A stretch of DNA of 64,000 nt from IMG/VR virus record IMGVR_UViG_3300023210_000016, one strand, 5' to 3'. The notes under the pieces are model-generated. The model was not told the DNA's origin. It saw only the letters and a program-made list of their open reading frames with translations, and made no database searches. Below are positions 2,691 to 63,894 of this stretch, piece after piece; the stretch's first letter is position 1, and each line of letters starts with the position of its first letter. The position numbers and the translations under genes are program-made. This stretch comes from a virus (Duplodnaviria > Heunggongvirae > Uroviricota > Caudoviricetes).

Positions 2691-3365
2691 ATGTATATAC
2701 GAGATGTACAAATCGAAAATACCGTTAAAGTGACTCGTGGTGACTGCACGTTCCACAGAAAAAACAAAGCGTATCATGCCCTTTACGAATGTGATGTATG
2801 TGGCATTGAGTTTACTAGAAAAGGGAAGTTCAGAAACAATATGGGATCATCGCACAATTATGAAGAAAGATGTAAAATGAATTCATATTGCAGTAAATGT
2901 TATCATCCGGCAATCACTCATGAGAATTCAGTTAAATCTCGACTTTCAAAACGCATCCTTGGGGAACAAAAAACTGACAAAGATGGCTATGTTCATAGAT
3001 TTGTTGGTCCGGATTGGCCCTATCAAAAAACATGGAATAAGCAAAATAGAAACTGGATACGTGAGCATATATATGTAATGTCCAATCATCTGGCGCGAAT
3101 GTTGTTATGCGGCGAACAGATACATCACATAGACGGTGATAAGAAAAACAACGATATCGATAATTTGGTATTATTATCGGCCAGCGAACATAAAATCGCA
3201 CACGATTCATATGAATTGGTTGGTCGCAATCTGTGTAAAATGGGTCATATTAGATTTGATCGAGGGGCAAACACCTATGTAATAAGCGAAGACCTGATGC
3301 GACAATTATCAGGAACAATAGACGCATCAAGTAATATGACCACAGACATGTCTATCACTATTTAA
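2691..3365 (+). CDS. HNH homing endonuclease, 224 aa
   Basis: Motif 'HHIDGDKKNNDIDNLVLLSASEHKIAH' (HNH); N-terminal CxxC zinc-finger-like pairs. Confidence 0.8.
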   Translation: MYIRDVQIENTVKVTRGDCTFHRKNKAYHALYECDVCGIEFTRKGKFRNNMGSSHNYEERCKMNSYCSKCYHPAITHENSVKSRLSKRILGEQKTDKDGYVHRFVGPDWPYQKTWNKQNRNWIREHIYVMSNHLARMLLCGEQIHHIDGDKKNNDIDNLVLLSASEHKIAHDSYELVGRNLCKMGHIRFDRGANTYVISEDLMRQLSGTIDASSNMTTDMSITI

Positions 3366-3409: not shown

Positions 3410-4483
3410 ATGTCCTTTTTAAAGAGCGTTGCAGTTATCCTGATTAGTGTGTTTTTTGTTACCTCGACAGATGCCCACCATATCAATTTAGCTGATCTAG
3501 TGCAGACGGTGGAGAAGAGCATCGTAATTGTACAAGCTGTTCCGAACGAACAACCAAAACCAATAAAAAACAGCAACCCTTTTAGTCAATACGGACAACC
3601 CCCTGCCAAAAAACCCGATCCTGCACAAAAAGATCAACCAACTAAGTCCGGAACAGGGTTTGTGGTTGAAGGTGGAATCATTGTAACAAACGCTCATGTG
3701 GTTGAAGATTCCAAGTTTGCATACGTGTTATTCAAGAACCAAATGAAACGCCACAAAGTGATAATCAAACATCTCGATAGAAAAGCTGATATCGCCGTTC
3801 TCGTACCCGAAAATAATCAATTATTAGTCAGCATCGCCCCATTATCATTTAGTACTGACCTCTTACGATCAGGTCAGTCGGTGTTTGCTATCGGTCATCC
3901 ACTAGGATTCAAATACACGGTATCTACCGGCATTATCAGTAGCCCAAGTGTTCATTTGCCACAAGATACCAATCCGTTCCGCAGATTCGTACAAACCGAC
4001 ACAAGCATCAATCAAGGAAATTCTGGTGGCCCTTTGATGAACCATAGAGGCGAAGTTGTTGGCGTGAACACAATCATTATTTCACCCGGCAGAGTAGGAT
4101 CAATTGGATTGGGTTTCAGTCTAAGAGGTGATTATGTTCAGCGTGTGTTGAACCATTTTCGTAACTTTGGTGAGATCAAACGTCCGCGCATTGGCATTAA
4201 GTTAGGCTATAACCAAGAAAAAGAACGCCTATATGTTATGGAAATACAACCAAACTCACCTGCATCAAGTAGTGGGATATTGGTCGGAGACCTGATATTG
4301 AAGATCAATGCTGACGAGATAACCCTCATGGAACATATCTTCAATGCATTAGAACAACTGATGCCAAATGATGATATGAGAGTGCAAGTTAGCCGTGATG
4401 GTGTTATCACGACATATTCAGTGATCTTGGGTGATCTACGAGAATTTGAAAAGAAAGAAGCTCTAAAACTTAAAGTACGTTGA
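3410..4483 (+). CDS. HtrA/DegP-like trypsin-family serine protease with C-terminal PDZ domain, 357 aa; N-terminal signal peptide
   Basis: Catalytic motifs 'TNAHVV' (His), 'DIAVL' (Asp) and 'GNSGGPL' (Ser); hydrophobic N-terminus; RBS AGGAG 7 nt upstream. Confidence 0.85.
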   Translation: MSFLKSVAVILISVFFVTSTDAHHINLADLVQTVEKSIVIVQAVPNEQPKPIKNSNPFSQYGQPPAKKPDPAQKDQPTKSGTGFVVEGGIIVTNAHVVEDSKFAYVLFKNQMKRHKVIIKHLDRKADIAVLVPENNQLLVSIAPLSFSTDLLRSGQSVFAIGHPLGFKYTVSTGIISSPSVHLPQDTNPFRRFVQTDTSINQGNSGGPLMNHRGEVVGVNTIIISPGRVGSIGLGFSLRGDYVQRVLNHFRNFGEIKRPRIGIKLGYNQEKERLYVMEIQPNSPASSSGILVGDLILKINADEITLMEHIFNALEQLMPNDDMRVQVSRDGVITTYSVILGDLREFEKKEALKLKVR

Positions 4484-5063
4484 AGCTTTCTGCGAATTCA
4501 TAGAGATTGGTTTCGCGATTGAACGTTATCAATCCAGCCTTGACCATTTCGAATATAAGCTTTTCTGATTTCGCATGACAGTTGTTGTGTTCCTGTACTG
4601 TCATTGTTACTAAATTTTCTAGTTTGTTGTTTTTCTTGTCACCATCTATGTGATGAACAACTTCGCCTTTAGCCATGCTTCTGCCTAAATGTGATTCCAT
4701 GACATACGTATGCTGTCTAGCCCAATATCTGCCACCACCGTTACGAGTAATAAAGTTGTCGTCCAAACCTACGAATACAACATTATATTGGTCCCATGTT
4801 TCCCTCACTTCGCCAATTTCATATCTTTCTAGAATTTTCTTCGCACGATGCGCGGCCAACATCTTAGCTGCCGCCGATGCTCCGCAATCATTGCATACGT
4901 GATTATAATCGTCAGATAATCTGACCGGATCAACCGTGCCTTTTGCTCTGCAAAAAAATGCACTGCAACTATCACATGTGAAGTTGTGCCATGTTTTCTC
5001 TCGGAAATAGCTTCCGGATTTACGAGTAAATTCTGTCTTATTGAGGGTGTCGTTAATATACAT
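4470..5063 (-). CDS. HNH homing endonuclease, 197 aa; paralogue of 2691..3365
   Basis: Motif 'HHIDGDKKNNKLENLV...QEHNNCH'; N-terminal Cys pairs 'CDSCSAFFC', 'CNDC'. Confidence 0.8.
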   Translation of the reverse strand: MYINDTLNKTEFTRKSGSYFREKTWHNFTCDSCSAFFCRAKGTVDPVRLSDDYNHVCNDCGASAAAKMLAAHRAKKILERYEIGEVRETWDQYNVVFVGLDDNFITRNGGGRYWARQHTYVMESHLGRSMAKGEVVHHIDGDKKNNKLENLVTMTVQEHNNCHAKSEKLIFEMVKAGLITFNRETNLYEFAESFNVL

Positions 5064-5136: not shown

Positions 5137-5466
5137 TTAGCCGAAAGCCACGCTCTCGCCACAACCACATGAGCTGGTGGAATTAGGATTCACCACCGTT
5201 AGCATTGAACCCATAATATCTGTTTTGTAATCAATTGTAGAACCGATTAAATACATGATTGCAATTACGTCAACTGCAAACACATAATCTGTGTCACGCA
5301 ATTCAATAATTTCCTCGTCTTTAAGTTCATCTTTCTTAATGACATCCCATTCGTATGAGAACCCAGCACAGCCACCACCACGAACACTTAATCTAACCGC
5401 ATCCATGTCATGGGTGCTGCATATTTCAATAAGATGATCTCTTGCGGAGTCTGTTAGTGTAATCAT
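5137..5466 (-). CDS. iscA: IscA/HesB-family Fe-S cluster insertion protein, 109 aa
   Basis: '[11 protein letters not shown]' and C-terminal '[12 protein letters not shown]' match the IscA/ErpA signature cysteines. Confidence 0.85.
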
Positions 5467-5684
5467 TTTTTATGACGGAATGTAATCCGACCTTTCGATA
5501 AATCGTATGGGGTCATTTCGACCGAGACGCTATCACCTACCACTACATTGATACGATGCATGCGCATCTTACCATTCAAGTGTGCTAGTATTTCGTGTTC
5601 GTTCTCTAACAACACGCGGAAGGTGGAATTCGGACATACCTCTAATATCTCACCTTCAAATTCAAGTAATTGCTCTTTCGCCAT
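5463..5684 (-). CDS. infA: Translation initiation factor IF-1, 73 aa
   Basis: Near full-length similarity to bacterial IF-1: 'MAKE...FRV.LEN.H...AH..GKMR......[17 protein letters not shown]'. Confidence 0.9.
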
Positions 5685-9263: not shown

Positions 9264-9293
9264 AGATATAATAAGCTAGAACTACTCTAAAGG

Positions 9294-9372
9294 TACTAGG
9301 GGCCGGAATCGAACCGACTCGCCTTGCGGATGCCGTTATGAGCGGCAGGACTCCCCATTTGTCTTCCCTAGC
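9294..9372 (-). tRNA. tRNA, anticodon CAU (Met or Ile2-like), 79 nt, atypical 12-nt variable region and 3-bp D-stem; no encoded CCA
   Basis: Manual fold: acceptor GCTAGGG/CCCTAGT, anticodon stem TGCCG/CGGCA with loop CTCATAA, T-arm GTCGG-TTCGATT-CCGGC. Confidence 0.55.
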
Positions 9373-12539: not shown

Positions 12540-14171
12540 TTACAACTGAATTTCTGACCAGTCTACAGAATACAAGAACAGCCCTGTGCCTGTCTCAATA
12601 ACTTGAATACTTATCGACAAGGTTTGTTGTGTAGTGTTATCGCCTTCTAAAATGAACTGCGCAATGTTAAATAATTCGTTGCTGACGTTGTCGGTTAATA
12701 CGTTATAATCAGAGACAGCACTAGCCGAACCAATTCTCGACCAGATTATCTCACCACCACTTACTGCGGTCGCCGTAGTATCCACTTCCACCGCTGAGTT
12801 TGTGGTATCGTGTGGGGCAAAAACTGCGCCAGTCAATACGGATGGGTCTCTGCGAATTCTAATAACATATTGGAAAGCTGCATTGTTGCCGATGCTAAGT
12901 CCAACAAGATTGCTGATAACAGAGTTTCTAATGCCCTGATATGTCGTAGCCGCTCTCAGACTCATAATTGGCTTTTCGCCATCTGTATCCGCGATGCTTT
13001 TTCTTGCAGCGACCACTGCGGTGTGACGTGTTGTGTTTCTAGAAATATTACCCAGAGCTTTTACGGTAGCACAAGCAAAACGCATTTGGCTATTGCCCGA
13101 TGCAATGCCAGTGTTAGTTACTTCCAATCTGATTGGCAATGTGCCTGTGCGCATGTAAACTTGTGTCAGGTTGTTAGCATTTTCAAACGTGTGGCCAACT
13201 CTCTTCTCGCCCCATTCAGTAATCATGCCCATTCGTACCTTACCAGCACCTAACCATTGATAATCAAACCACATGAGATTCATGTTTAATGGGTTCCATG
13301 TAAATGGTCGCGTTGAAGAACCGTCTAATTTATTATCTGAGAAATCTGCTTGCGCAACTCTTGTATCTACTGCCGAAGAACCGTCTGCTGCACTACTACG
13401 AATTACTGCGTACAGTGTTGTTCCATCTAGTTCAAAGAATATTCCATTGTCATCATCGAAATAACCCCAACGACGACGAACGTTTGCTTTGCCGACATCA
13501 CCCATGACAATAGTCATTTCGATCAAGTTACCTGTTCCGGGTTGATACGGATGATACAAATGTGATTGTCTTACCGCACTAGCACCAGAGCCGGTGCCGC
13601 CGGTATCCAATAAAACAGAAGATTCGTTTTGAAGATATGTAATAGAACCTGTTCCTGCAGTGACATCGTACCATGCTTCTGGGTGTTCGGTGTATGTGTG
13701 GCTGTGATCGGAAATTGTGTTTTGTTCTGCAGAAAGCAAATCACCAAACGGACTGAACAATGGCGTACCGTCTTTGAATGTTATCTTCTGCGCACCATCA
13801 GCATCTAGTCGCTGTCTGAATTCTGGATTGTCTGGGTCAGTTAATACCATCAATTGGTATTCAGCATCGATCTGACTCGTGGACAGTGGAACGTTTGCTA
13901 CGCCCTTAGTGACAGCAGATACCTGCAGGTTTTCGTCGTTTGTGAAGGTTCCCGTGACTGTTTTCAGATACAATTCACCATCCGTTCCGGGTGTAAACCC
14001 AGTAACATTGATGGCAGTAACCGTACCTGTTGCAGAAGAGGAAACGCCCGTAACGACATCGCCAATTGCGAAACCGCCGTTTGTTTCGTTATCAAACGGT
14101 ACTAACGATCTGGCAACGGACCCGATTTTCTTACCAGTACTATCTGGTGGGACTCTCACGAATGATGGCAT
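12540..14171 (-). CDS. Large structural protein, 543 aa (tail/baseplate)
   Basis: Long ORF in the structural block; G/T/S-rich. Confidence 0.5.
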   Translation of the reverse strand: MPSFVRVPPDSTGKKIGSVARSLVPFDNETNGGFAIGDVVTGVSSSATGTVTAINVTGFTPGTDGELYLKTVTGTFTNDENLQVSAVTKGVANVPLSTSQIDAEYQLMVLTDPDNPEFRQRLDADGAQKITFKDGTPLFSPFGDLLSAEQNTISDHSHTYTEHPEAWYDVTAGTGSITYLQNESSVLLDTGGTGSGASAVRQSHLYHPYQPGTGNLIEMTIVMGDVGKANVRRRWGYFDDDNGIFFELDGTTLYAVIRSSAADGSSAVDTRVAQADFSDNKLDGSSTRPFTWNPLNMNLMWFDYQWLGAGKVRMGMITEWGEKRVGHTFENANNLTQVYMRTGTLPIRLEVTNTGIASGNSQMRFACATVKALGNISRNTTRHTAVVAARKSIADTDGEKPIMSLRAATTYQGIRNSVISNLVGLSIGNNAAFQYVIRIRRDPSVLTGAVFAPHDTTNSAVEVDTTATAVSGGEIIWSRIGSASAVSDYNVLTDNVSNELFNIAQFILEGDNTTQQTLSISIQVIETGTGLFLYSVDWSEIQL

Positions 14172-19818: not shown

Positions 19819-21561
19819 TTATACAATCGGAGGAAAAGTGTCTGCTGGGCTATCCACATTCGGTGTTTTCAAAATATCCAATATTTTACGATTTAGAACA
19901 GGTTTTTCTTGCAATCCTTCTCTTAGTGGACCCAGATGTTTGTCGTATTTCTTCCAGAAATCCAATGCAGATCGATACAATGGCTTGCGGACTTGAAACA
20001 AACTGGCTGTCCAGACTGCTCGGTCGGTATTATAGTAGTTCTTTAACTCATCTTCCCAATCAAGGTCCAAGAAATCTAGAACCCGATGAACTTGGTTGTC
20101 AAAATCATCTACCATATCTTCATACTGCAATGACAGGATAGACTCGGGATATAATCGTTCCCAGTGTTCCATCAATGGCTCGTACACTTGGCGATAATAC
20201 TTCCCTACTTCATACAGATCGTATGTGTAATGCCATGTGTCTTCTGATGCCCAGACTTGTTGGAAATTAGAAAAACAACATGCCATTGGGTCACGCTTAC
20301 AATGAATGAATTTGGTGTTCGGCAACATCGACTTGATCAAACCAAGATAGTAATAATTGCTTGGTGTCTTGTCGATCATGTAAGTCTTTTCAGGCCACCG
20401 TTTGGCCAGCGAGTTATCGTATTGTTGTCCTAGTATTCTGAACCTATTTGGAGATACTTGGTTCATTGTATATGGGTGCGGCTGTGGGGGTTCAATGCCT
20501 TGCATGGCAATCTCGCCTTTTAGATCATTCAGAAAATCATTGATGTTGTTCAATTCTCCTTCAGAATGTACCTTTGTATGGGTTGCTAATGCCTGATCAA
20601 TCAGGGTTGTGCCTGATCGTGGCATGCCAATAATATACAACGGCATCGTTTGCTCGTCGCCATGAGGTGGTTGACGCTCTACGAATTCTGGGGTGAATAC
20701 TTCTTTGATGTTGAATTGATATTGCAGTACGTTCTCGAATTTATATCCGTTGTCTTTCATATCTTCGTGGATTTGCTTGTTACCAGCTTCCAGATATTCG
20801 AAGGCGTCATCGATCTCGTCAAACTGTTGATATATTTGTGATATAGCAATATTGATTCGCCCGAAATCGTAGTTCGATTGTGGTGGGCCAGACAACTTAC
20901 TCAACATATCATCAATGAATGCTTTTCCATCTTCTAGGGTATCAAACTTTTTGAATTGGATGAGTGATCGCCACGTTGGGATATGGTCCGGTCGAAATTC
21001 GAGACCTTTTTCCAGATCAAAGATTCCTTGCTCGACGTTACCTGCACTAACATGACAAATTCCTCTGTTGTGCCACGAAAAGAACAATTCGGGATCACGT
21101 TCTAGTGCGAAATCGAATGCTTTGATTGCCTGATCGAGTTGGTTCAATGCTTTGAATGCACCGCCAAGTTCATTGAAATACACAGCGTTGGTATCATCAA
21201 TACGAATTGCATTCAGGAATTGCTCAACCGCTAGGTCCATGTGTCCAGAACTAAAGAACATGAAACCAAGATCGTAATAATATTCGGGATTGTCGGGGTC
21301 GATCTCAACTGCGCCCTTCATTGCCAGTGCTGCGAGTTTGAACTCACCTGCGTGAAAGGCTATCTTGGAAATACCCTTGAATGCAAGAGGTTGTTGAAGG
21401 TCACGTTGTAATACCTCTTTGAGCAACTTCTCTGCTTCTTCGTATTCTTTGGTTTCTACTAGTTCTAACCCGTGTTTGAGTTTTCGTTCGGTTATTACTT
21501 TGTATTCTTTCTTGGCTTGGCGTTCTTGATCTTTCTCTTTAGATTTCTTTGATTTTGCCAT
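19819..21561 (-). CDS. TPR-repeat protein fused to a sulfotransferase domain, 580 aa
   Basis: N-terminal TPR-like repeats (YYYDLGFMFF...AIK); C-terminal 'GMPRSGTTL' 5'-PSB sulfotransferase motif. Confidence 0.6.
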   Translation of the reverse strand: MAKSKKSKEKDQERQAKKEYKVITERKLKHGLELVETKEYEEAEKLLKEVLQRDLQQPLAFKGISKIAFHAGEFKLAALAMKGAVEIDPDNPEYYYDLGFMFFSSGHMDLAVEQFLNAIRIDDTNAVYFNELGGAFKALNQLDQAIKAFDFALERDPELFFSWHNRGICHVSAGNVEQGIFDLEKGLEFRPDHIPTWRSLIQFKKFDTLEDGKAFIDDMLSKLSGPPQSNYDFGRINIAISQIYQQFDEIDDAFEYLEAGNKQIHEDMKDNGYKFENVLQYQFNIKEVFTPEFVERQPPHGDEQTMPLYIIGMPRSGTTLIDQALATHTKVHSEGELNNINDFLNDLKGEIAMQGIEPPQPHPYTMNQVSPNRFRILGQQYDNSLAKRWPEKTYMIDKTPSNYYYLGLIKSMLPNTKFIHCKRDPMACCFSNFQQVWASEDTWHYTYDLYEVGKYYRQVYEPLMEHWERLYPESILSLQYEDMVDDFDNQVHRVLDFLDLDWEDELKNYYNTDRAVWTASLFQVRKPLYRSALDFWKKYDKHLGPLREGLQEKPVLNRKILDILKTPNVDSPADTFPPIV

Positions 21562-38243: not shown

Positions 38244-38269
38244 GATAATTGATCTTTAGTTAATATTAG

Positions 38270-38361
38270 TACCCCCGCCGAGACTCGAACTCGGAACGCT
38301 CTCTAATCTGGAGACTGTGCTGATTATAAATCAGGGGTTTTACCAATTAAACTACGGGGGC
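38270..38361 (-). tRNA. Atypical tRNA, 92 nt: anticodon loop TTTATAA (UAU, Ile-AUA-like), long 24-nt variable arm with its own stem-loop; no CCA
   Basis: Acceptor GCCCCCG/CGGGGGT (G1-U72), D-arm GTTT-AATTGGTA-AAAC, anticodon stem CTGA/TCAG, T-arm CCGAG-TTCGAGT-CTCGG. Confidence 0.5.
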
Positions 38362-56189: not shown

Positions 56190-56789
56190 TTAGGTTATAC
56201 GGAATTTCTCATCATGGTTTTTCTTACCCAGCATTAACTTGATAGTGACTTCGCTATCCGGCAGAAACCCTTTTTTGATGTACTTTTTGATACGCCGCTC
56301 GACATTATCCCATCCATGATCGGCGATGGACTTATTCACGTCGATGAAATGTAATGTACCTGTTTCCAAATCGGCAATTGCTTCCGGAGTATGAATAACC
56401 TGCTTCCCATCGGTGGCGAATTGACATACCGTGATATCGAAACTATTGATACAATCAATTGCGGTTTCCTCTGAACGGAAGCCAACACAATTCAATACGT
56501 ATCCAATATAATTCAACCAGCACAGTGCGCCGTGGCCATAATCATTGCCTTGTCGTTGCTGATGGTTGTCGGTTGCGCCGCAATCATACAGGGTTTGCTT
56601 GAATTCTTGGTATTGCGCTTTGTTGGCGAAGTAGATGTCCACATCATTCGCATTCAAGAAGTTACCATCCTGATGGAAGTTCAATGCGGCACCGCCAGCG
56701 ATCCATGGCCCGTTGTTCAGGTCCATCAATGGGAGCAAGTTGGTGATGTTGTATGGCTTATGTGATAGATTCATCATCGTCTTCATCAT
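56190..56789 (-). CDS. Pol-beta-superfamily nucleotidyltransferase; head-domain motifs resemble tRNA CCA-adding/poly(A) polymerase, 199 aa
   Basis: 'IAGGAALNFHQDGNFLNANDVDIYF' (GG...DxD) and 'INSFDITVCQFA' (cf. RDFTINA). Confidence 0.4.
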   Translation of the reverse strand: MMKTMMNLSHKPYNITNLLPLMDLNNGPWIAGGAALNFHQDGNFLNANDVDIYFANKAQYQEFKQTLYDCGATDNHQQRQGNDYGHGALCWLNYIGYVLNCVGFRSEETAIDCINSFDITVCQFATDGKQVIHTPEAIADLETGTLHFIDVNKSIADHGWDNVERRIKKYIKKGFLPDSEVTIKLMLGKKNHDEKFRIT

Positions 56790-57792
56790 TCTCTACATCT
56801 GATAAAAAGTTGTTCTCGTATTTCCAATACACAAACGCTTTATGGAACTCTTTGTAAGCAGTTTTGAATGGTATCGTTTCGTCTGAATTGGAACCATAAA
56901 GTGCGCGTTCAATACGCAACAGCGAAGAATTTACTTCACTGATAACCTCACGCTGACGAACTCGCCTACGTTTCATTTCGGCGCTGGCGGCATGATCATA
57001 CTGATCATCATAATGCCCCATTATGTCATCACAACAAATAAGGTATACAGCACGACGCTGATAATAAGGATCGAAACAGCCCATGATGTTGTCATTGGCT
57101 TAACAGGTTCCTTTGGACCTTTGCCCCAAGATACCTCTTGCTCAAACCAATCTCTAGCCATAAGGTTGGGATAGTTCCATGCTCTGCGAACTGATGGATT
57201 TATTGGTGTGGGTGTGTTCGCAGGGTCTACCTGTACTTTATTCACGGTGTTCATAATACTCTCGCTCCAATTGTTTGATAAAGATCAGATAAAATCAAAA
57301 TGGCCTTCTGAGCCTGAACTTGCTCTTCGGGTGTGAATCCGCTATGACCTGTCAACATCACGTCCAGAATTGCAACAGCATTGGCGGTGCGGTCAAGCGC
57401 CTCATGCGAATGGAATGGATCAATACGAGACGACGCTTCCCGAATGATCTTCTGGTGGCGTTCGTCGGTTGACTGGAACATTTCACACCGTTCGGCATCT
57501 TCGAGATCGGTACATTCCGATTCAACATCACCGCAAAATTTGCATAAATCAACCATCACGTTTCAACTTTCTACTGGCGTAATTGTAAATTCGATAGCAT
57601 CGGTTTTTCGCATTCACGTATAATTGGTCCTGAATGCCCGAATTTGCATTCAATGTTGACTCGTGCGCATGAATAAGGCAATCGGTGCGCTCATTTATTA
57701 GGGCATTGTGGGCAGAATATCCGGAATATAGCACCATGCCGAATACCATGGCAACGCCGAATACCAGTGCCAGCCCCACCAATGAAGCTGTA

Positions 57793-58554
57793 TTATAGCT
57801 CAAAGGTCTGGCCTTTCACAACCCAACCACGGAACCCATCCTGAATACAATCAGCTTTGTCGCCGGGTTGATAATGATATAGCCACATTTTGGCTTTGGT
57901 TTCTTCGTCCAGTGTCACCAGTTCATTGTAGTGAGCATGTACGCCAGATGGGAACGGAGAGGTTTCACTGTCCTGAAAAATTATGTCAGACATGTTGTAG
58001 AAATCTCTGATCTGGTTCGGATTGAATTGGGTGTCGGTTGTAATGAAATACGAAACTTCATTCACGGTGAACATCAATCCATACGAAGGTACGATGTCAA
58101 ACCCATCCATATAATGAACAACTTGAACCAACGTAAATGACACGCCTTCCCACAGGAATGATCCGTTCTTCTCGATAGCTTCGACAACAAAGTAATCATC
58201 CAACGATGTGATTTTGGTTTGAATTGATCCTGCGCCACCAGACAAGGTATGAGTCCATAGATCGGGTGCAAGATTTTCATTCACAAACAACGTAGGGCGC
58301 TTTAGCGTAGGATTGAAATACGTACTGAACATCAAGTATTCCATTCCGCCAACATGATCGGCGTGTTGGTGACTGACGTACACAGCATCAATGGTATCCA
58401 GTTCGATCCCCTGATCTCGCAGTGAGAACCTGATATCAGTTCCACAATCAATCAACAGACGTTTGCCGTTGTCCGCTTCGATGATCATATTGGATTGATA
58501 GTTATTTGGCTCTAGCGTAAAGGCCGAACCTGCGCCTAAGAATATGAGTTTCAT
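57793..58554 (-). CDS. Metallo-beta-lactamase-fold hydrolase (RNase Z/BN-like), 253 aa
   Basis: 'LIFLGAGSAF...LLIDCGTDIRF...VYVSHQHADHVGG' (HxHxDH). Confidence 0.7.
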   Translation of the reverse strand: MKLIFLGAGSAFTLEPNNYQSNMIIEADNGKRLLIDCGTDIRFSLRDQGIELDTIDAVYVSHQHADHVGGMEYLMFSTYFNPTLKRPTLFVNENLAPDLWTHTLSGGAGSIQTKITSLDDYFVVEAIEKNGSFLWEGVSFTLVQVVHYMDGFDIVPSYGLMFTVNEVSYFITTDTQFNPNQIRDFYNMSDIIFQDSETSPFPSGVHAHYNELVTLDEETKAKMWLYHYQPGDKADCIQDGFRGWVVKGQTFEL

Positions 58555-59003
58555 TCTGTTTCTTCCTCGTAAATATAGTAGTGCTTTTGAATGTTCGCTG
58601 GCATTGCGTCATACCGCTTCGAGTGAATGGTCACGTTTCCATCATAGGAGCCGACAAGACAGGCGATGTGCTGCATCTCTTCTGAAAGATTAGTTGTGTC
58701 GAGTCTATAATATACCGGATTTTCTGGCTCACCTGCGTTAATTCGATCAATGCGACGTTGATGCTCTTCCTTGGTGTCTCTGAAAGCATCCCAACACGCA
58801 AATCCAAAGGCCGACACAAATAGTAAAATGCCGAACCCTGCCGCAATATTTCCGAATAGTTCTTTCCCAGCCATAGCATAAATGCCAAACCCGAATCCGA
58901 CAACCAAAGCTACCGCCAGAGCGACGACGACAGTGCCTACGATTAGGCCCTTCCACGTAGAACATGTGGCATTCATATAGCAACGCTCAAGCCATGCTTT
59001 CAT
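58551..59003 (-). CDS. Membrane protein, 150 aa
   Basis: Two long hydrophobic helices. Confidence 0.4.
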   Translation of the reverse strand: MKAWLERCYMNATCSTWKGLIVGTVVVALAVALVVGFGFGIYAMAGKELFGNIAAGFGILLFVSAFGFACWDAFRDTKEEHQRRIDRINAGEPENPVYYRLDTTNLSEEMQHIACLVGSYDGNVTIHSKRYDAMPANIQKHYYIYEEETE

Positions 59004-59174
59004 GATTCAAATCCTTTTGGTGCTAGGTTTTTGTAGTATTCTAACTCTTTTTCAAGTTCTTCGATAACATAGTACGCTTTATTGATGGTGTTATACATGA
59101 TGTAGATACAAATAAATTGGATCGACATTGCAATTATTAAAGCTATGAGTAACATATGATCGCTTTCTAAAGAG

Positions 59175-59332
59175 TGGTGGGTCTTGACGGGATCGAACCG
59201 CCGACATTCTCGGTGTCATTTGAACCTCAAAGATTTCCCTTCTTGGTTCCCCAATGCAGAGTTCGATGAACTCCGGAGACTTTATGGAAGTCTCACATAA
59301 ACGAGATGCTCTACCATCTGAGCTAAAGACCC
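59175..59332 (-). tRNA. tRNA-like gene, 158 nt with encoded CCA: canonical acceptor/D/T arms but an ~82-nt insertion (putative intron) in the anticodon loop; the spliced loop would be TTTATGC (UAU)
   Basis: 5' exon GGGTCTT-TA-GCTC-AGATGGTA-GAGC-A-TCTCG; 3' exon CGAGA-ATGTC-GGCGG-TTCGATC-CCGTC-AAGACCC-A-CCA; 89 nt lie between the paired anticodon-stem halves. Confidence 0.55.
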
Positions 59333-59385
59333 TTACTATATTTTGATCATTGTAATGTATTTAGCAAACACTGTCAAGTGATATT

Positions 59386-60285
59386 TTAATCATGTTCATT
59401 CTTCGGTATGTATTGCTTGACTACGCATGGTGTATTACCCCACCCCTTTTGCTCTGCTTCTTTTCTCGTTTTGAATAACAAGGGTGGTTCCTCCCAGCTA
59501 CCGCCGTGATTGAGCCAACCTTCCCAATACCGGCTGCGGCTGTCGGGGCCATGATTCAGTATTATCCAAACTCCGTACTTCACCATATCATTTCCATATC
59601 TTATACAGGTTCTTCTCAATATATTGTTCAACTCGATACATTGATTTACTCATTGTTGATCGCCAAAAACTTTTACCGCGCAAATGCTCTTCTGCTTGCT
59701 TGCGGGTATCAAATAACAACGGCGATGTGTTCTTGCCGTAATCATGTGTGTAACTGATACGTTTTGCAAACCATCCCTCACGTTGGCCAGTTGTGGTATA
59801 CGTGACGATATAATATCTAACGCACATACGTGCTGCGATCTTTGCTACGATACTGCCAATTATCAACCGATGTGACCGGAACAATTTTGATATGATGTGC
59901 CCATGTTGTCATTCGATCTTTCATGTATCGTTCTGCGTGAACCCGATTCTTGAACACATACAACTGATCATAACGATCATCTTTATCGTATGGTTTGGTC
60001 ACGTATTCCCATTTGCAATTCGGCTGCGTCTTTGGGTCAGTGGCGTATTTGATTACGAACTTTTGCATGTTTGTCTTTCTTCGGGATGTATTGCTTGACG
60101 CTGAATTGATGCACGAATTGTCTTCCAATTTCTCTGGCCACTACAGTTTCAATAAAACGTTCGCCTTCTTCTCTGGTGTTGAACAGTACTCGATTCAAGG
60201 GATTACGAAAAAATTGCCACCCGCCTTTTCTAAACCCAATAATAAGAGTGGTATGATGTCTTCGCCATAGTCCGTACTTTACCAC
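59386..60285 (-). repeat. Tandem array of four paralogous small genes (~75-85 aa each; track ORFs 59386..59631, 59588..59884, 59817..60128, 60037..60285)
   Basis: Shared motifs MVKYG.W ... LLF.TR.EAE ... VKQYIPK across all four translations. Confidence 0.6.
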
Positions 60286-60671: not shown

Positions 60672-60986
60672 TTACATTCCCGTAGGATAATAAGGTTGAA
60701 CGCCAGAGTCTTGATCTTCAATACTTTCCACAAGTTGAACTTCTGGAATGAAATGAGTCAACATGTTTTGGACGCCGTATTTGATTGTGGCGTTAGAACT
60801 AGCACACCCGGCACACGCGCCTGACATGAACATGGTAGCCACGCCATCTTTATATGATTCAAGGGTGACTGAGCCGCCGTGTTGGGCCACCATAGGTGCA
60901 ACGTGAATTTCTAATAGGTCATTAATCTCTTGTGTGATCTCTTCGTCGGTCTTATCGGTCATCTGTTTTTTCCGTTCGTTCTTCAA
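60672..60986 (-). CDS. Nfu/NifU-C-terminal-domain Fe-S cluster carrier, 104 aa
   Basis: 'MVAQHGGSVTLESYKDGVATMFMSGACAGCASS' matches the Nfu CxxC domain. Confidence 0.75.
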   Translation of the reverse strand: MKNERKKQMTDKTDEEITQEINDLLEIHVAPMVAQHGGSVTLESYKDGVATMFMSGACAGCASSNATIKYGVQNMLTHFIPEVQLVESIEDQDSGVQPYYPTGM

Positions 60987-62729: not shown

Positions 62730-63155
62730 CTATACATCTTCTTCCCTTTGCTTTACGCCTAAACGCGCATTCACCATTTGTTCAAACTCTTTGTCTAAAT
62801 CACTGTATTGGATTGTTTCACCACTTGCATGATCTTTGACAATGTTACGAGGCTCATGATAGGTTCGAATGGTTTCATCAGATTCGTAACGTTTACGCGA
62901 CTCTTTTTGATTATACAGGTTTACTACCCGATGTGCAAGTTTTGTGAACGCCTCTTTTTGATTACGGGATCGTTCACGGAAATTCTGACCGGTTTCCATC
63001 ATGCCAGATTCGATATGGGTGATCCTGCAACAGTTCTGATGTTTGTTGCGATGCTGCCCACCTGCGCCGGTACCACTGAACCAATCGATCTTGAAATCTT
63101 TCTTGGTGAACGATAGATGCGGTATTCGCTCTAAGTGCATGTTAGTTTTGACCAT
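62730..63155 (-). CDS. ArfB/class-I release-factor-like GGQ-domain peptidyl-tRNA hydrolase, 141 aa
   Basis: 'SGTGAGGQHRNKHQNCCRITHIESGMMETGQNFRERSRNQKEA' matches the RF GGQ domain (SG.GGQ.VNK....R..H.P.G..V.CQ..RSQ..N). Confidence 0.75.
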   Translation of the reverse strand: MVKTNMHLERIPHLSFTKKDFKIDWFSGTGAGGQHRNKHQNCCRITHIESGMMETGQNFRERSRNQKEAFTKLAHRVVNLYNQKESRKRYESDETIRTYHEPRNIVKDHASGETIQYSDLDKEFEQMVNARLGVKQREEDV

Positions 63156-63193: not shown

Positions 63194-63580
63194 TTATGAC
63201 CATGTTTGTTTGAACGTGATGAATTCGAGATCATTTGTGAAATAGAAAGTTCGGAGCCTAAAGTATGTTCCTTCGCGGCAGTTCCCATATTCTTCGATGG
63301 GAATTTGTGCGTCTTCTAAATACATCTCACGCATCTCGTACCATTCCGGATTCGCCAGCCCGAATGTTAGATCAGGTGATCCAACTAAAACAACGTCCGC
63401 ATACATGCCAAGGATTTCAAAATCTCCGGTATCGGGGTCTTCTTCGCCATACTCGATGTCCGTTATACATCCGTCATACTCATATACCATGTGCTCTTGC
63501 GATGGGGGTGGATACTCCCAATGTGGATTAGGTTCGTCTCCATAATTTGAAAGAAACACCTTTGTTTCGGTATCGGTCAT
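63194..63580 (-). CDS. Hypothetical acidic protein, 128 aa
   Basis: ORF. Confidence 0.4.
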   Translation of the reverse strand: MTDTETKVFLSNYGDEPNPHWEYPPPSQEHMVYEYDGCITDIEYGEEDPDTGDFEILGMYADVVLVGSPDLTFGLANPEWYEMREMYLEDAQIPIEEYGNCREGTYFRLRTFYFTNDLEFITFKQTWS

Positions 63581-63894
63581 TCTTCTTCGACTTTGACCTC
63601 AAGTGGAAATTCTGCCTGTCTGGCGGCGACCATGATCTCAGTACGCTTCTGTTCTGCGATCTCATACACAAAGGACGCAACAACGGCTGAACCATTTTCA
63701 TGGATTTCTACCGCTTTATCCTCGGCGCGATCATATGTGTAATTCAATACACCAACCAATGATTCAATGACGAACTCAAACGATGTTTGTTCATCGTTCA
63801 TGTAGATCACGCTGAACATACTTGGTAGCGCCACCTTGACTTTGGTGATTGTTTTGGTTTTTTCAATGGTATCTGTTGTCATTTTATCACTCAT
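63577..63894 (-). CDS. clpS: ClpS-like ATP-dependent Clp protease adaptor, 105 aa
   Basis: 'PSMFSVIYMNDEQTSFEFVIESLVGVLNY...AEDKAVEIHENGSAVVASFVYEIAEQK' matches the ClpS fold signature (P.MY.V.L.NDDYTPM.FV...L...F). Confidence 0.75.
   Translation of the reverse strand: MSDKMTTDTIEKTKTITKVKVALPSMFSVIYMNDEQTSFEFVIESLVGVLNYTYDRAEDKAVEIHENGSAVVASFVYEIAEQKRTEIMVAARQAEFPLEVKVEEE

Follow-up and report, generated by a model that had tools for sequence, protein, structure and literature searches.

A predicted tRNA-Val(UAC) gene of a T4-like phage interrupted inside its anticodon by an 82-nt candidate intron with a homologue in a phage tRNA-Thr gene

In the window (the whole 64,000-nt stretch of Caudoviricetes DNA analysed here), a tRNA gene on the minus strand is interrupted within its anticodon by 82 nt. 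On balance, this insert is best explained as a true intron, belonging to a small family not described before whose members split phage tRNA genes inside the anticodon, which in this case would be that of a tRNA-Val(UAC), after U34 or A35. A compact tRNA intron had already been proposed in a sequence-only reading of this DNA, and that part of the proposal has gained support, among other things from the homologous insert of another tRNA gene, although the isotype and the splice site given at that time were wrong. The interrupted gene is composed of the following parts:

59175..59332, minus strand: interrupted tRNA-Val(UAC) gene, a 158-nt precursor including the encoded CCA, recognised by the Rfam tRNA match, the fold and the joined exons.
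59299..59332, minus strand: 5' exon, tRNA positions 1-34, ending in ...UCUCG UUU (with the 35/36 junction, its end is 59298).
59217..59298, minus strand: 82-nt intervening sequence, AUGUGAGAC...GGUUCAAAUG, in the 34/35 reading, homologous to the 88-nt insert of locus L197.
59175..59216, minus strand: 3' exon, tRNA positions 35-76, ACAC CGAGA ... AAGACCC A CCA.

Read from 59332 to 59175, the precursor starts with GGGUCUU UA GCUC AGAUGGUA GAGC A UCUCG and, after 89 nt, continues with CGAGA AUGUC GGCGG UUCGAUC CCGUC AAGACCC A CCA. The acceptor stem (GGGUCUU/AAGACCC), the D arm, the T arm (GGCGG-UUCGAUC-CCGUC), the 5-nt variable loop, A73 and the CCA are all canonical, and the two halves of the anticodon stem (UCUCG / CGAGA) are separated by 89 nt instead of the normal 7, a spacing noted earlier and confirmed here on the minus strand. 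In a local search, the Rfam tRNA model (RF00005) spans 59332..59178 of this strand over model positions 1-71 with 51.8 bits (E=3.5e-10), above its gathering score of 29 bits, leaving a block of 85 nt unaligned in the anticodon loop. This Rfam/Infernal comparison, which the sequence-only reading had put forward as a check, confirms its description of an intact tRNA gene with encoded CCA and an 82-nt anticodon-loop insert, and gave no match of the group I or group II models at E<=10. ARAGORN with default settings does not report the gene. In the predicted fold of the precursor (-54.8 kcal/mol, z=-2.7), the tRNA arms are intact and three hairpins emerge within the closed anticodon stem.

The insert is not an assembly artefact, because independent assemblies from ENA, JGI and Logan, a 93.5-kb contig among them, agree with the locus at 100% identity over stretches of up to 4.5 kb; all these copies are clonal, with zero variation among them. 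A chance origin is also excluded, taking into account the full-length tRNA match and the fact that another tRNA gene carries a homologous insert.

The joined exons are recognised by ARAGORN as a 76-nt tRNA-Val(tac), whose 7-nt loop, UUUACAC, has U33, the anticodon UAC and a purine at position 37. They share an identical run of 42 nt (UGGUAGAGCAUCUCGUUUACACCGAGAAUGUCGGCGGUUCGA), which includes this loop, with the intron-less phage tRNA-Val of L154, and another intron-less phage tRNA-Val(UAC), that of L090, reads ...GAGCA UCUCG UUUACAC CGAGG. The best match in E. coli is again a tRNA-Val (loop CUUACAA, 82.9% identity over 76 nt). When the tRNA bodies were compared with the loop masked, 21 of the best 40 matches among 1,244 distinct phage tRNAs were Val(tac) and 0/40 were Ile, in a set partly enriched in Val(UAC) through the search patterns used; the E. 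coli match is independent of that set. From these comparisons, the exons are those of a tRNA-Val(UAC) and not of a tRNA-Ile(UAU), with the insert placed after U34 (34/35) or after A35 (35/36) and not at 37/38. Excision of 82 nt allows seven alternative 7-nt loops. The 34/35 and 35/36 junctions are indistinguishable because one A is shared, and an excision two nucleotides further 5' leads to the anticodon GAC, which is again that of a valine tRNA. The spliced-junction sequences predicted from the joined exons are UCUCGUUUACACCGAGA and GAGCATCTCGTTTACACCGAGAATGTC.

Splicing at 37/38, as initially suggested, would release a tRNA with the loop UUUAUGC and the anticodon UAU (Ile), which is contradicted by the Val(UAC) exon matches. 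The intron mode of ARAGORN, another check named together with that suggestion, does return Ile(tat), but only by means of a 65-nt intron and a spurious long variable arm. Thus, the assignment to Ile(UAU) at 37/38, common to the earlier reading and to ARAGORN -i, was dropped, since L154 and L090, the E. coli match and the body matches all indicate Val. The proposal of a permuted or split tRNA is likewise unsupported. Nor is there a link through UAU with the tRNA at 38270, given that the anticodon of the interrupted gene is a different one. The latter gene (38269-38361, minus strand) is a 93-nt UAU tRNA with a variable arm of ~23 nt (class II-like), which scores 56.6 bits on the Rfam tRNA model and has no relation to the interrupted tRNA-Val; a 92-nt UAU tRNA resembling it is found at 8274-8365 of L068. 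A further tRNA of the window, an 81-nt tRNA-Met(cat) called by ARAGORN at 9292-9372 (minus strand), has an enlarged variable region and scores below the gathering score of the Rfam tRNA model.

The second member of the family was reached via the RF-1-domain gene located 3.4 kb upstream of the tRNA, whose two closest homologues (74% and 68% identity) led to L197 and L198. A block of genes for S21, HSP20, MotA, ClpS and RF-1 is common to the window phage and these two loci, and a 122-aa gene of the window has a homologue immediately upstream of the tRNA locus in both. At 13175-13338 of L197 there is a tRNA gene with an 88-nt insert in the anticodon loop, between the stem halves ACGCA / UGCGU. 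The gene begins with GCCAGUA UA GCUC AGUUGGUA GAGC A ACGCA and, after 95 nt, ends with UGCGU AGGUC CGGGA UUCGAGU UCUCG UGCUGGC A CCA. As judged from gene order and sequence, this insert occupies a locus orthologous to the tRNA locus of the window. The Rfam tRNA model is blind to the interrupted gene of L197 even at E<=1, and its tRNA has an unusual A53-U61 pair.

The identity of the L197 tRNA was established by its body and by synteny. With the loop masked, 17 of its best 40 matches among the 1,244 phage tRNAs were Thr and 3 were Lys; it has G1-C72 and C2-G71, and it is identical at 58/77 positions to the tRNA-Thr of L198, where the syntenic locus carries an intron-less tRNA-Thr(UGU) together with a tRNA-Ser. 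Removal of the 88 nt at 32/33, 33/34 or 34/35 gives the loop CUUGUAA and a clean 76-nt tRNA-Thr(tgt). A reading of this host as tRNA-Lys(UUU), under which both inserts would follow a U and end in G, was dropped, since body and synteny indicate Thr(UGU), and therefore the terminal G is not conserved. The only insertion site common to both genes is 34/35, in which case the L197 insert ends in U and that of the window in G. Over the two members, the junctions are ambiguous by 1-3 nt.

The insert of the window is organised as follows:

59276..59294, minus strand: hairpin Pa, GAGACUU-CCAUA-AAGUCUC, 7 bp, from the MFE fold, with a counterpart in L197.
59257..59275, minus strand: hairpin Pb, CGGAGUUC-AUC-GAACUCUG, 8 bp with a 3-nt loop, from the MFE fold, with a counterpart in L197.
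59217..59256, minus strand: domain Pc, an extended hairpin that contains a GAAA loop and two internal loops, which is the sequence-conserved core and ends at the 3' junction.
59218..59232, minus strand: 15-nt block CUUUGAGGUUCAAAU, which does not differ between the two members and stops 1 nt short of the 3' junction.

Besides the identical 15-mer, the two inserts have CGGAGUU in common, as well as the greater part of the 45 nt at their 3' end. Their local alignment reaches z=9.6 against shuffles, and falls to background (z=1.3) outside the 3' block. In spite of this drift, independent MFE folds of the two inserts give the same three-hairpin layout (Pa, Pb, Pc). In Pa, which has 7 positions in each member, 5 pairs are changed on both sides and one is a U-U mismatch in L197; in Pb, with 8 bp and a 3-nt loop in each, 5/8 pairs are compensatory and one is changed on one side; in Pc, where the conserved block forms the 3' strand, G-U is replaced by C-G at one pair and C-G by U-G at another. 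When Pb and Pc are aligned, 95.5% of cells are paired, compared with 23-54% when the partners are slid by 1-3 columns, and six pairs are changed on both sides, compared with 0-1 in these slid controls. The covariation comes from one pair of sequences, window and L197, and is thus suggestive rather than a statistical proof; it suggests that the hairpins are kept by compensatory change and may be under selection as RNA structure. A covariance model of Pb and Pc (R1) gives 76.9 bits for the window and 81.7 bits for L197. Both members have the insert at the wobble position, Pa, Pb, the conserved Pc, CUUUGAGGUUCAAAU at the 3' junction and an exact restoration of the tRNA, and by sequence comparison they are homologous, a two-member family in different tRNAs.

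Other pairings were also considered. The UCUC/GAGA pairing between exon and intron, pointed out in the sequence-only reading, has a counterpart in the homologue, but a weak one of 3 bp. [quoted passage not shown] RNAalifold suggested an H-type pseudoknot spanning Pa (UUUAUG/CAUAAA) as well as a UUCC/GGAG pairing, which were rejected as sterically implausible or at non-equivalent positions.

No further relatives have been found. A search with R1 at E<1 over ~2.0 Mb of loci, including ~1,400 phage tRNAs, retrieved nothing beyond the two known members, and an exact 26-mer search gave no relatives. Among the matches listed, gapped patterns from D arm to T arm retrieved tandem tRNAs alone, scans with junction patterns gave chance matches in coding regions, corrected patterns applied to IMG/VR and JGI metagenomes gave tandem tRNA-Val genes and one giant-virus intron, and scans of IMG/VR and GTDB genomes with the family motif (CTTTGAGGTTCAAAT) gave chance matches. 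Blastn against INPHARED yielded tRNA exon matches or nothing. The neighbouring 150-aa gene (58551-59003) has no homologue among 5.8 billion proteins and offers no route to relatives, and homologues of Apyc1, as well as three further RF-1 homologues, lie in non-syntenic phages, where no related insert was reached. ARAGORN in intron mode, run over all loci, made ~200 calls that resemble tandem-tRNA artefacts.

It could be argued that the insert is a selfish DNA element, for instance a mini-element spread by homing endonucleases, that breaks non-essential tRNAs and leaves a pseudogene with no removal at the RNA level. This would fit with the HNH endonuclease gene that adjoins the interrupted tRNA in L197 (phrog_1271, 6e-22), with the several HNH and GIY-YIG genes of the window phage, with the fact that neither a catalytic core nor a splicing enzyme was found, and with the invisibility of the L197 gene to the Rfam tRNA model. 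However, compensatory hairpins in a sequence that has drifted to background (z=1.3) speak for selection on RNA structure, and in the window the exons, CCA and promoter are intact. Moreover, inspection revealed no terminal inverted repeats and no target-site duplication beyond 1 nt, on which grounds a MITE-like element was also rejected. This explanation is therefore considered rather improbable. We infer instead that the intron is removed at the RNA level, because both host tRNAs are perfect upon its deletion and the structure seems to be under selection. Thus, the insert would be cut out of the precursor RNA while the tRNA body keeps the exons together, and their rejoining would produce a working tRNA-Val. 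At the DNA level, the element might shift between tRNA genes, possibly by means of free-standing homing endonucleases.

To our knowledge, every bacterial or phage tRNA intron whose mechanism is known belongs to the group I ribozymes or, in rare cases, to those of group II, with a length of at least ~180 nt. The site 34/35 is the classic one of the group I intron of tRNA-Leu(UAA), and group I introns and homing endonucleases are frequent in T4-like phages. [quoted passage not shown] Those surveyed in bacterial tRNA genes measure 184-894 bp, start after U and end in G (PMC13011429), so that the first impression of an insert far too short for this class (82 nt versus 184-894) was correct, 82-88 nt being less than half the size of the smallest one in that survey (PMC13011429). 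The U/G rule is obeyed by the window (UUU|A...G|ACAC), while L197, read as Thr, has the U before the insert and ends in U or A.

One might still imagine a group I intron in minimal or degenerate form, self-spliced with guanosine, taking into account the site, the final U of the 5' exon in both members, the G at the end of the window insert and the abundance of such introns, and of homing endonucleases, among T4-like phages (PMC13011429). Nevertheless, 82-88 nt leave no space for P3-P9, the Intron_gpI model has no match in the window element at E<=10, L197 ends in U or A, and no P1 with a U-G wobble conserved in both members could be drawn by hand, all of which makes this alternative very improbable. 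As for group II introns, which are characterised by six domains including domain V, a 5' GUGYG and a 3' AY, there is no Rfam match and the size is incompatible.

An intron of the archaeal or eukaryal type, carried by an archaeal or eukaryal virus and cut by a splicing endonuclease at a bulge-helix-bulge (BHB), is hardly credible. The BHB consists of two 3-nt bulges on opposite strands with a 4-bp helix between them, and requires EndA and a ligase. The size of the insert is typical of such introns, which share with it the use of non-canonical positions of the anticodon loop, and the giant-virus tRNA-Lys of L150/L174 has a canonical 37-nt intron. By contrast, the 4-bp central helix cannot be paired by hand at any of the junctions k=1-4 (for example UCGU/CAAA, CGUU/AAAU or UCUC/UUCA), so that no BHB motif can form here, as the sequence-only reading had anticipated for a phage, and the promoter of bacterial type, the encoded CCA, the T4-like genes and the neighbours directed against bacterial defences all point to a bacterial host. 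The L150/L174 locus itself (IMG/VR, giant-virus MAG) shows a tRNA-Lys(UUU) with a duplicated 5' half and its 37-nt insert at 37/38, in the style of eukaryotes.

Searches for known small RNAs were also negative. With the Rfam models, both strands of 58900-59600 gave no family besides tRNA at E<=10, and the L197 element matched no family at E<=1; these searches discarded hammerhead, HDV-like/theta, twister, twister-sister, pistol, hatchet and hairpin ribozymes. The hammerhead core CUGAUGA...GAAA is absent from either strand on inspection, and the eye likewise detected no core motif of the HDV, twister, pistol, hatchet or hairpin type. The insert family has no counterpart in Rfam or in the literature searched.

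The closest analogy is to be found in the 'enigmatic' tRNA introns of Lak megaphages, which are 79-141 nt long, have no Rfam match, show high conservation from genome to genome and occur in several tRNAs (PMC6784885 Table S6). Both groups are short anticodon-loop inserts in phage tRNAs with neither an Rfam match nor an explained removal (PMC6784885). However, the Lak inserts lie apparently at ~36/37 and are AT-rich, with a small 5' hairpin, an A-rich linker and a tRNA-like acceptor/T-arm minihelix (PMC6784885), whereas the family described here is found at 34/35 and has three plain hairpins, a conserved 3' domain, no T-arm and no sequence likeness to them; the Lak hosts are Prevotella megaphages, and those of the window and L197 inserts are aquatic T4-like phages. 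Small structured RNAs coupled to phage tRNAs have also been described in the case of theta (minimal HDV-like) ribozymes, which, according to two reports, adjoin phage tRNAs and are implicated in their maturation (PMC10879173; bioRxiv 10.1101/2023.06.13.544163); as described there, these ribozymes are adjacent to the tRNA, and the insert is inside the loop.

Regarding the mechanism of removal, we tentatively favour, with low confidence, an RNA-centred excision, in which Pc would be the active or recognition core, over a known protein pathway. This preference arises because conservation resides in the intron rather than in a junction motif, and because a tRNA splicing endonuclease is, as far as we know, absent from bacteria. 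A nuclease of the phage or the host that cleaves the precursor, with subsequent ligation of the RtcB or Rnl type, is a possibility nearly as likely as the RNA-centred one. The ~40 larger ORFs of the window and the precomputed Pfam annotations of the flanking loci revealed neither an RNA ligase nor a kinase/phosphatase or a splicing endonuclease. It is conceivable, if doubtful, that the 82-88-nt element represents a new intron class independent of all known machinery: either an autocatalytic RNA much smaller than group I, in which the folded tRNA body would hold the exons and the ~40-nt Pc would be the core, or the first case of enzymatic cleave-and-ligate tRNA splicing in bacteria or phages.

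A structured and conserved intron of 82-88 nt that restores perfect tRNAs in two genes would stand outside every known removal route, and together with the Lak megaphage introns it suggests that compact tRNA introns spliced by an as yet unexplained chemistry may be present in phages. In addition, standard annotation fails with these genes (ARAGORN says Ile(tat), and Rfam misses L197), so phage tRNA repertoires and the codon-usage inferences made from them may err.

The genomic surroundings of the interrupted tRNA have to be considered with respect to a further explanation. Upstream of it, a single promoter-like site was found:

59349..59377, minus strand: sigma-70-type promoter, TTGACA-17 nt-TACAAT, with 11/12 positions of the consensus and its end 16 nt before tRNA position 1.

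This putative promoter, to which a function can be attributed only by inference, is the sole site of this kind within 58800-59700. On the same strand and downstream of the tRNA there are a 51-aa ORF, the 150-aa ORFan (58551-59003), Apyc1 (57793-58554) and Gad2 (56190-56789). The region 56190-58554 (minus strand), directly 3' of the tRNA, is an anti-defence cluster encoding the Apyc1 anti-Pycsar hydrolase and the Gad2 anti-Gabija protein.

Taking this context into account, it has been considered that the transcript might remain unspliced, a stable RNA of chimeric nature whose tRNA body would serve as a scaffold for processing and stability (RNase P, CCA, folding) that displays Pc, the functional part in this case being Pc, for example as a protein-binding decoy or an anti-defence RNA. 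Engineered tRNA scaffolds are known to stabilise RNAs placed at the anticodon. The explanation, which we regard as unlikely although it deserves attention, agrees with the facts that Pc is the conserved part, that the gene possesses a strong promoter of its own and stands first in an operon with Apyc1 and Gad2, and that T4 rnaC is a stable RNA with a tRNA-like acceptor and T arm. However, the Val and Thr hosts each keep a flawless 7-nt loop and canonical exons upon removal of the insert, neither of which a scaffold needs, and the neighbours of the interrupted tRNA in L197 are not anti-defence genes. The T4 RNAs rnaC and rnaD (species 1 and 2), of 119-139 nt, are located in the tRNA cluster and their function is unexplained; rnaC resembles the interrupted gene in its T-arm, acceptor-like ends and extra hairpins, but rnaC and rnaD are incomplete tRNAs, removal of no block from them yields a tRNA and they have no sequence similarity to the insert. 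A removable intron continues to be the preferred reading.

The window phage is a distant T4-like or cyanomyovirus-like virus, with genes similar to those for IF1, ArfB/RF-1, ClpS, NifU and S21, as well as several HNH and GIY-YIG endonucleases. On the minus strand, the IF1-like gene (eIF-1a fold) lies at 5137-5684, the NifU-like Fe-S assembly gene at 60672-60986, the RF-1-domain (ArfB-like) gene at 62730-63155 and ClpS at 63577-63894; the S21 and HSP20 genes come immediately past the window end (L193).

Other observations concern the neighbourhoods of these loci. In L197, a UGA tRNA with a long variable arm is present at 14066-14151 and scores 46.8 bits on the tRNA-Sec model (gathering score 47), and the equivalent position of L198 (14042-14129) is occupied by a tRNA-Ser-like gene. 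In the window, two HNH genes (2691-3365, plus strand, and 4470-5063, minus strand) flank a trypsin-PDZ protease gene (3410-4483, plus strand) in an otherwise minus-strand region, and a 580-aa TPR and sulfotransferase protein (19819-21561, minus strand) is found among the large genes without a Pfam match. Beyond the window start, the same phage shows at 18617-19910 of L190 a DNA_pol3_alpha fragment of 175 aa followed by a NUMOD3-containing ORF, which suggests that this polymerase gene has been split by the insertion of a homing endonuclease or an intron.
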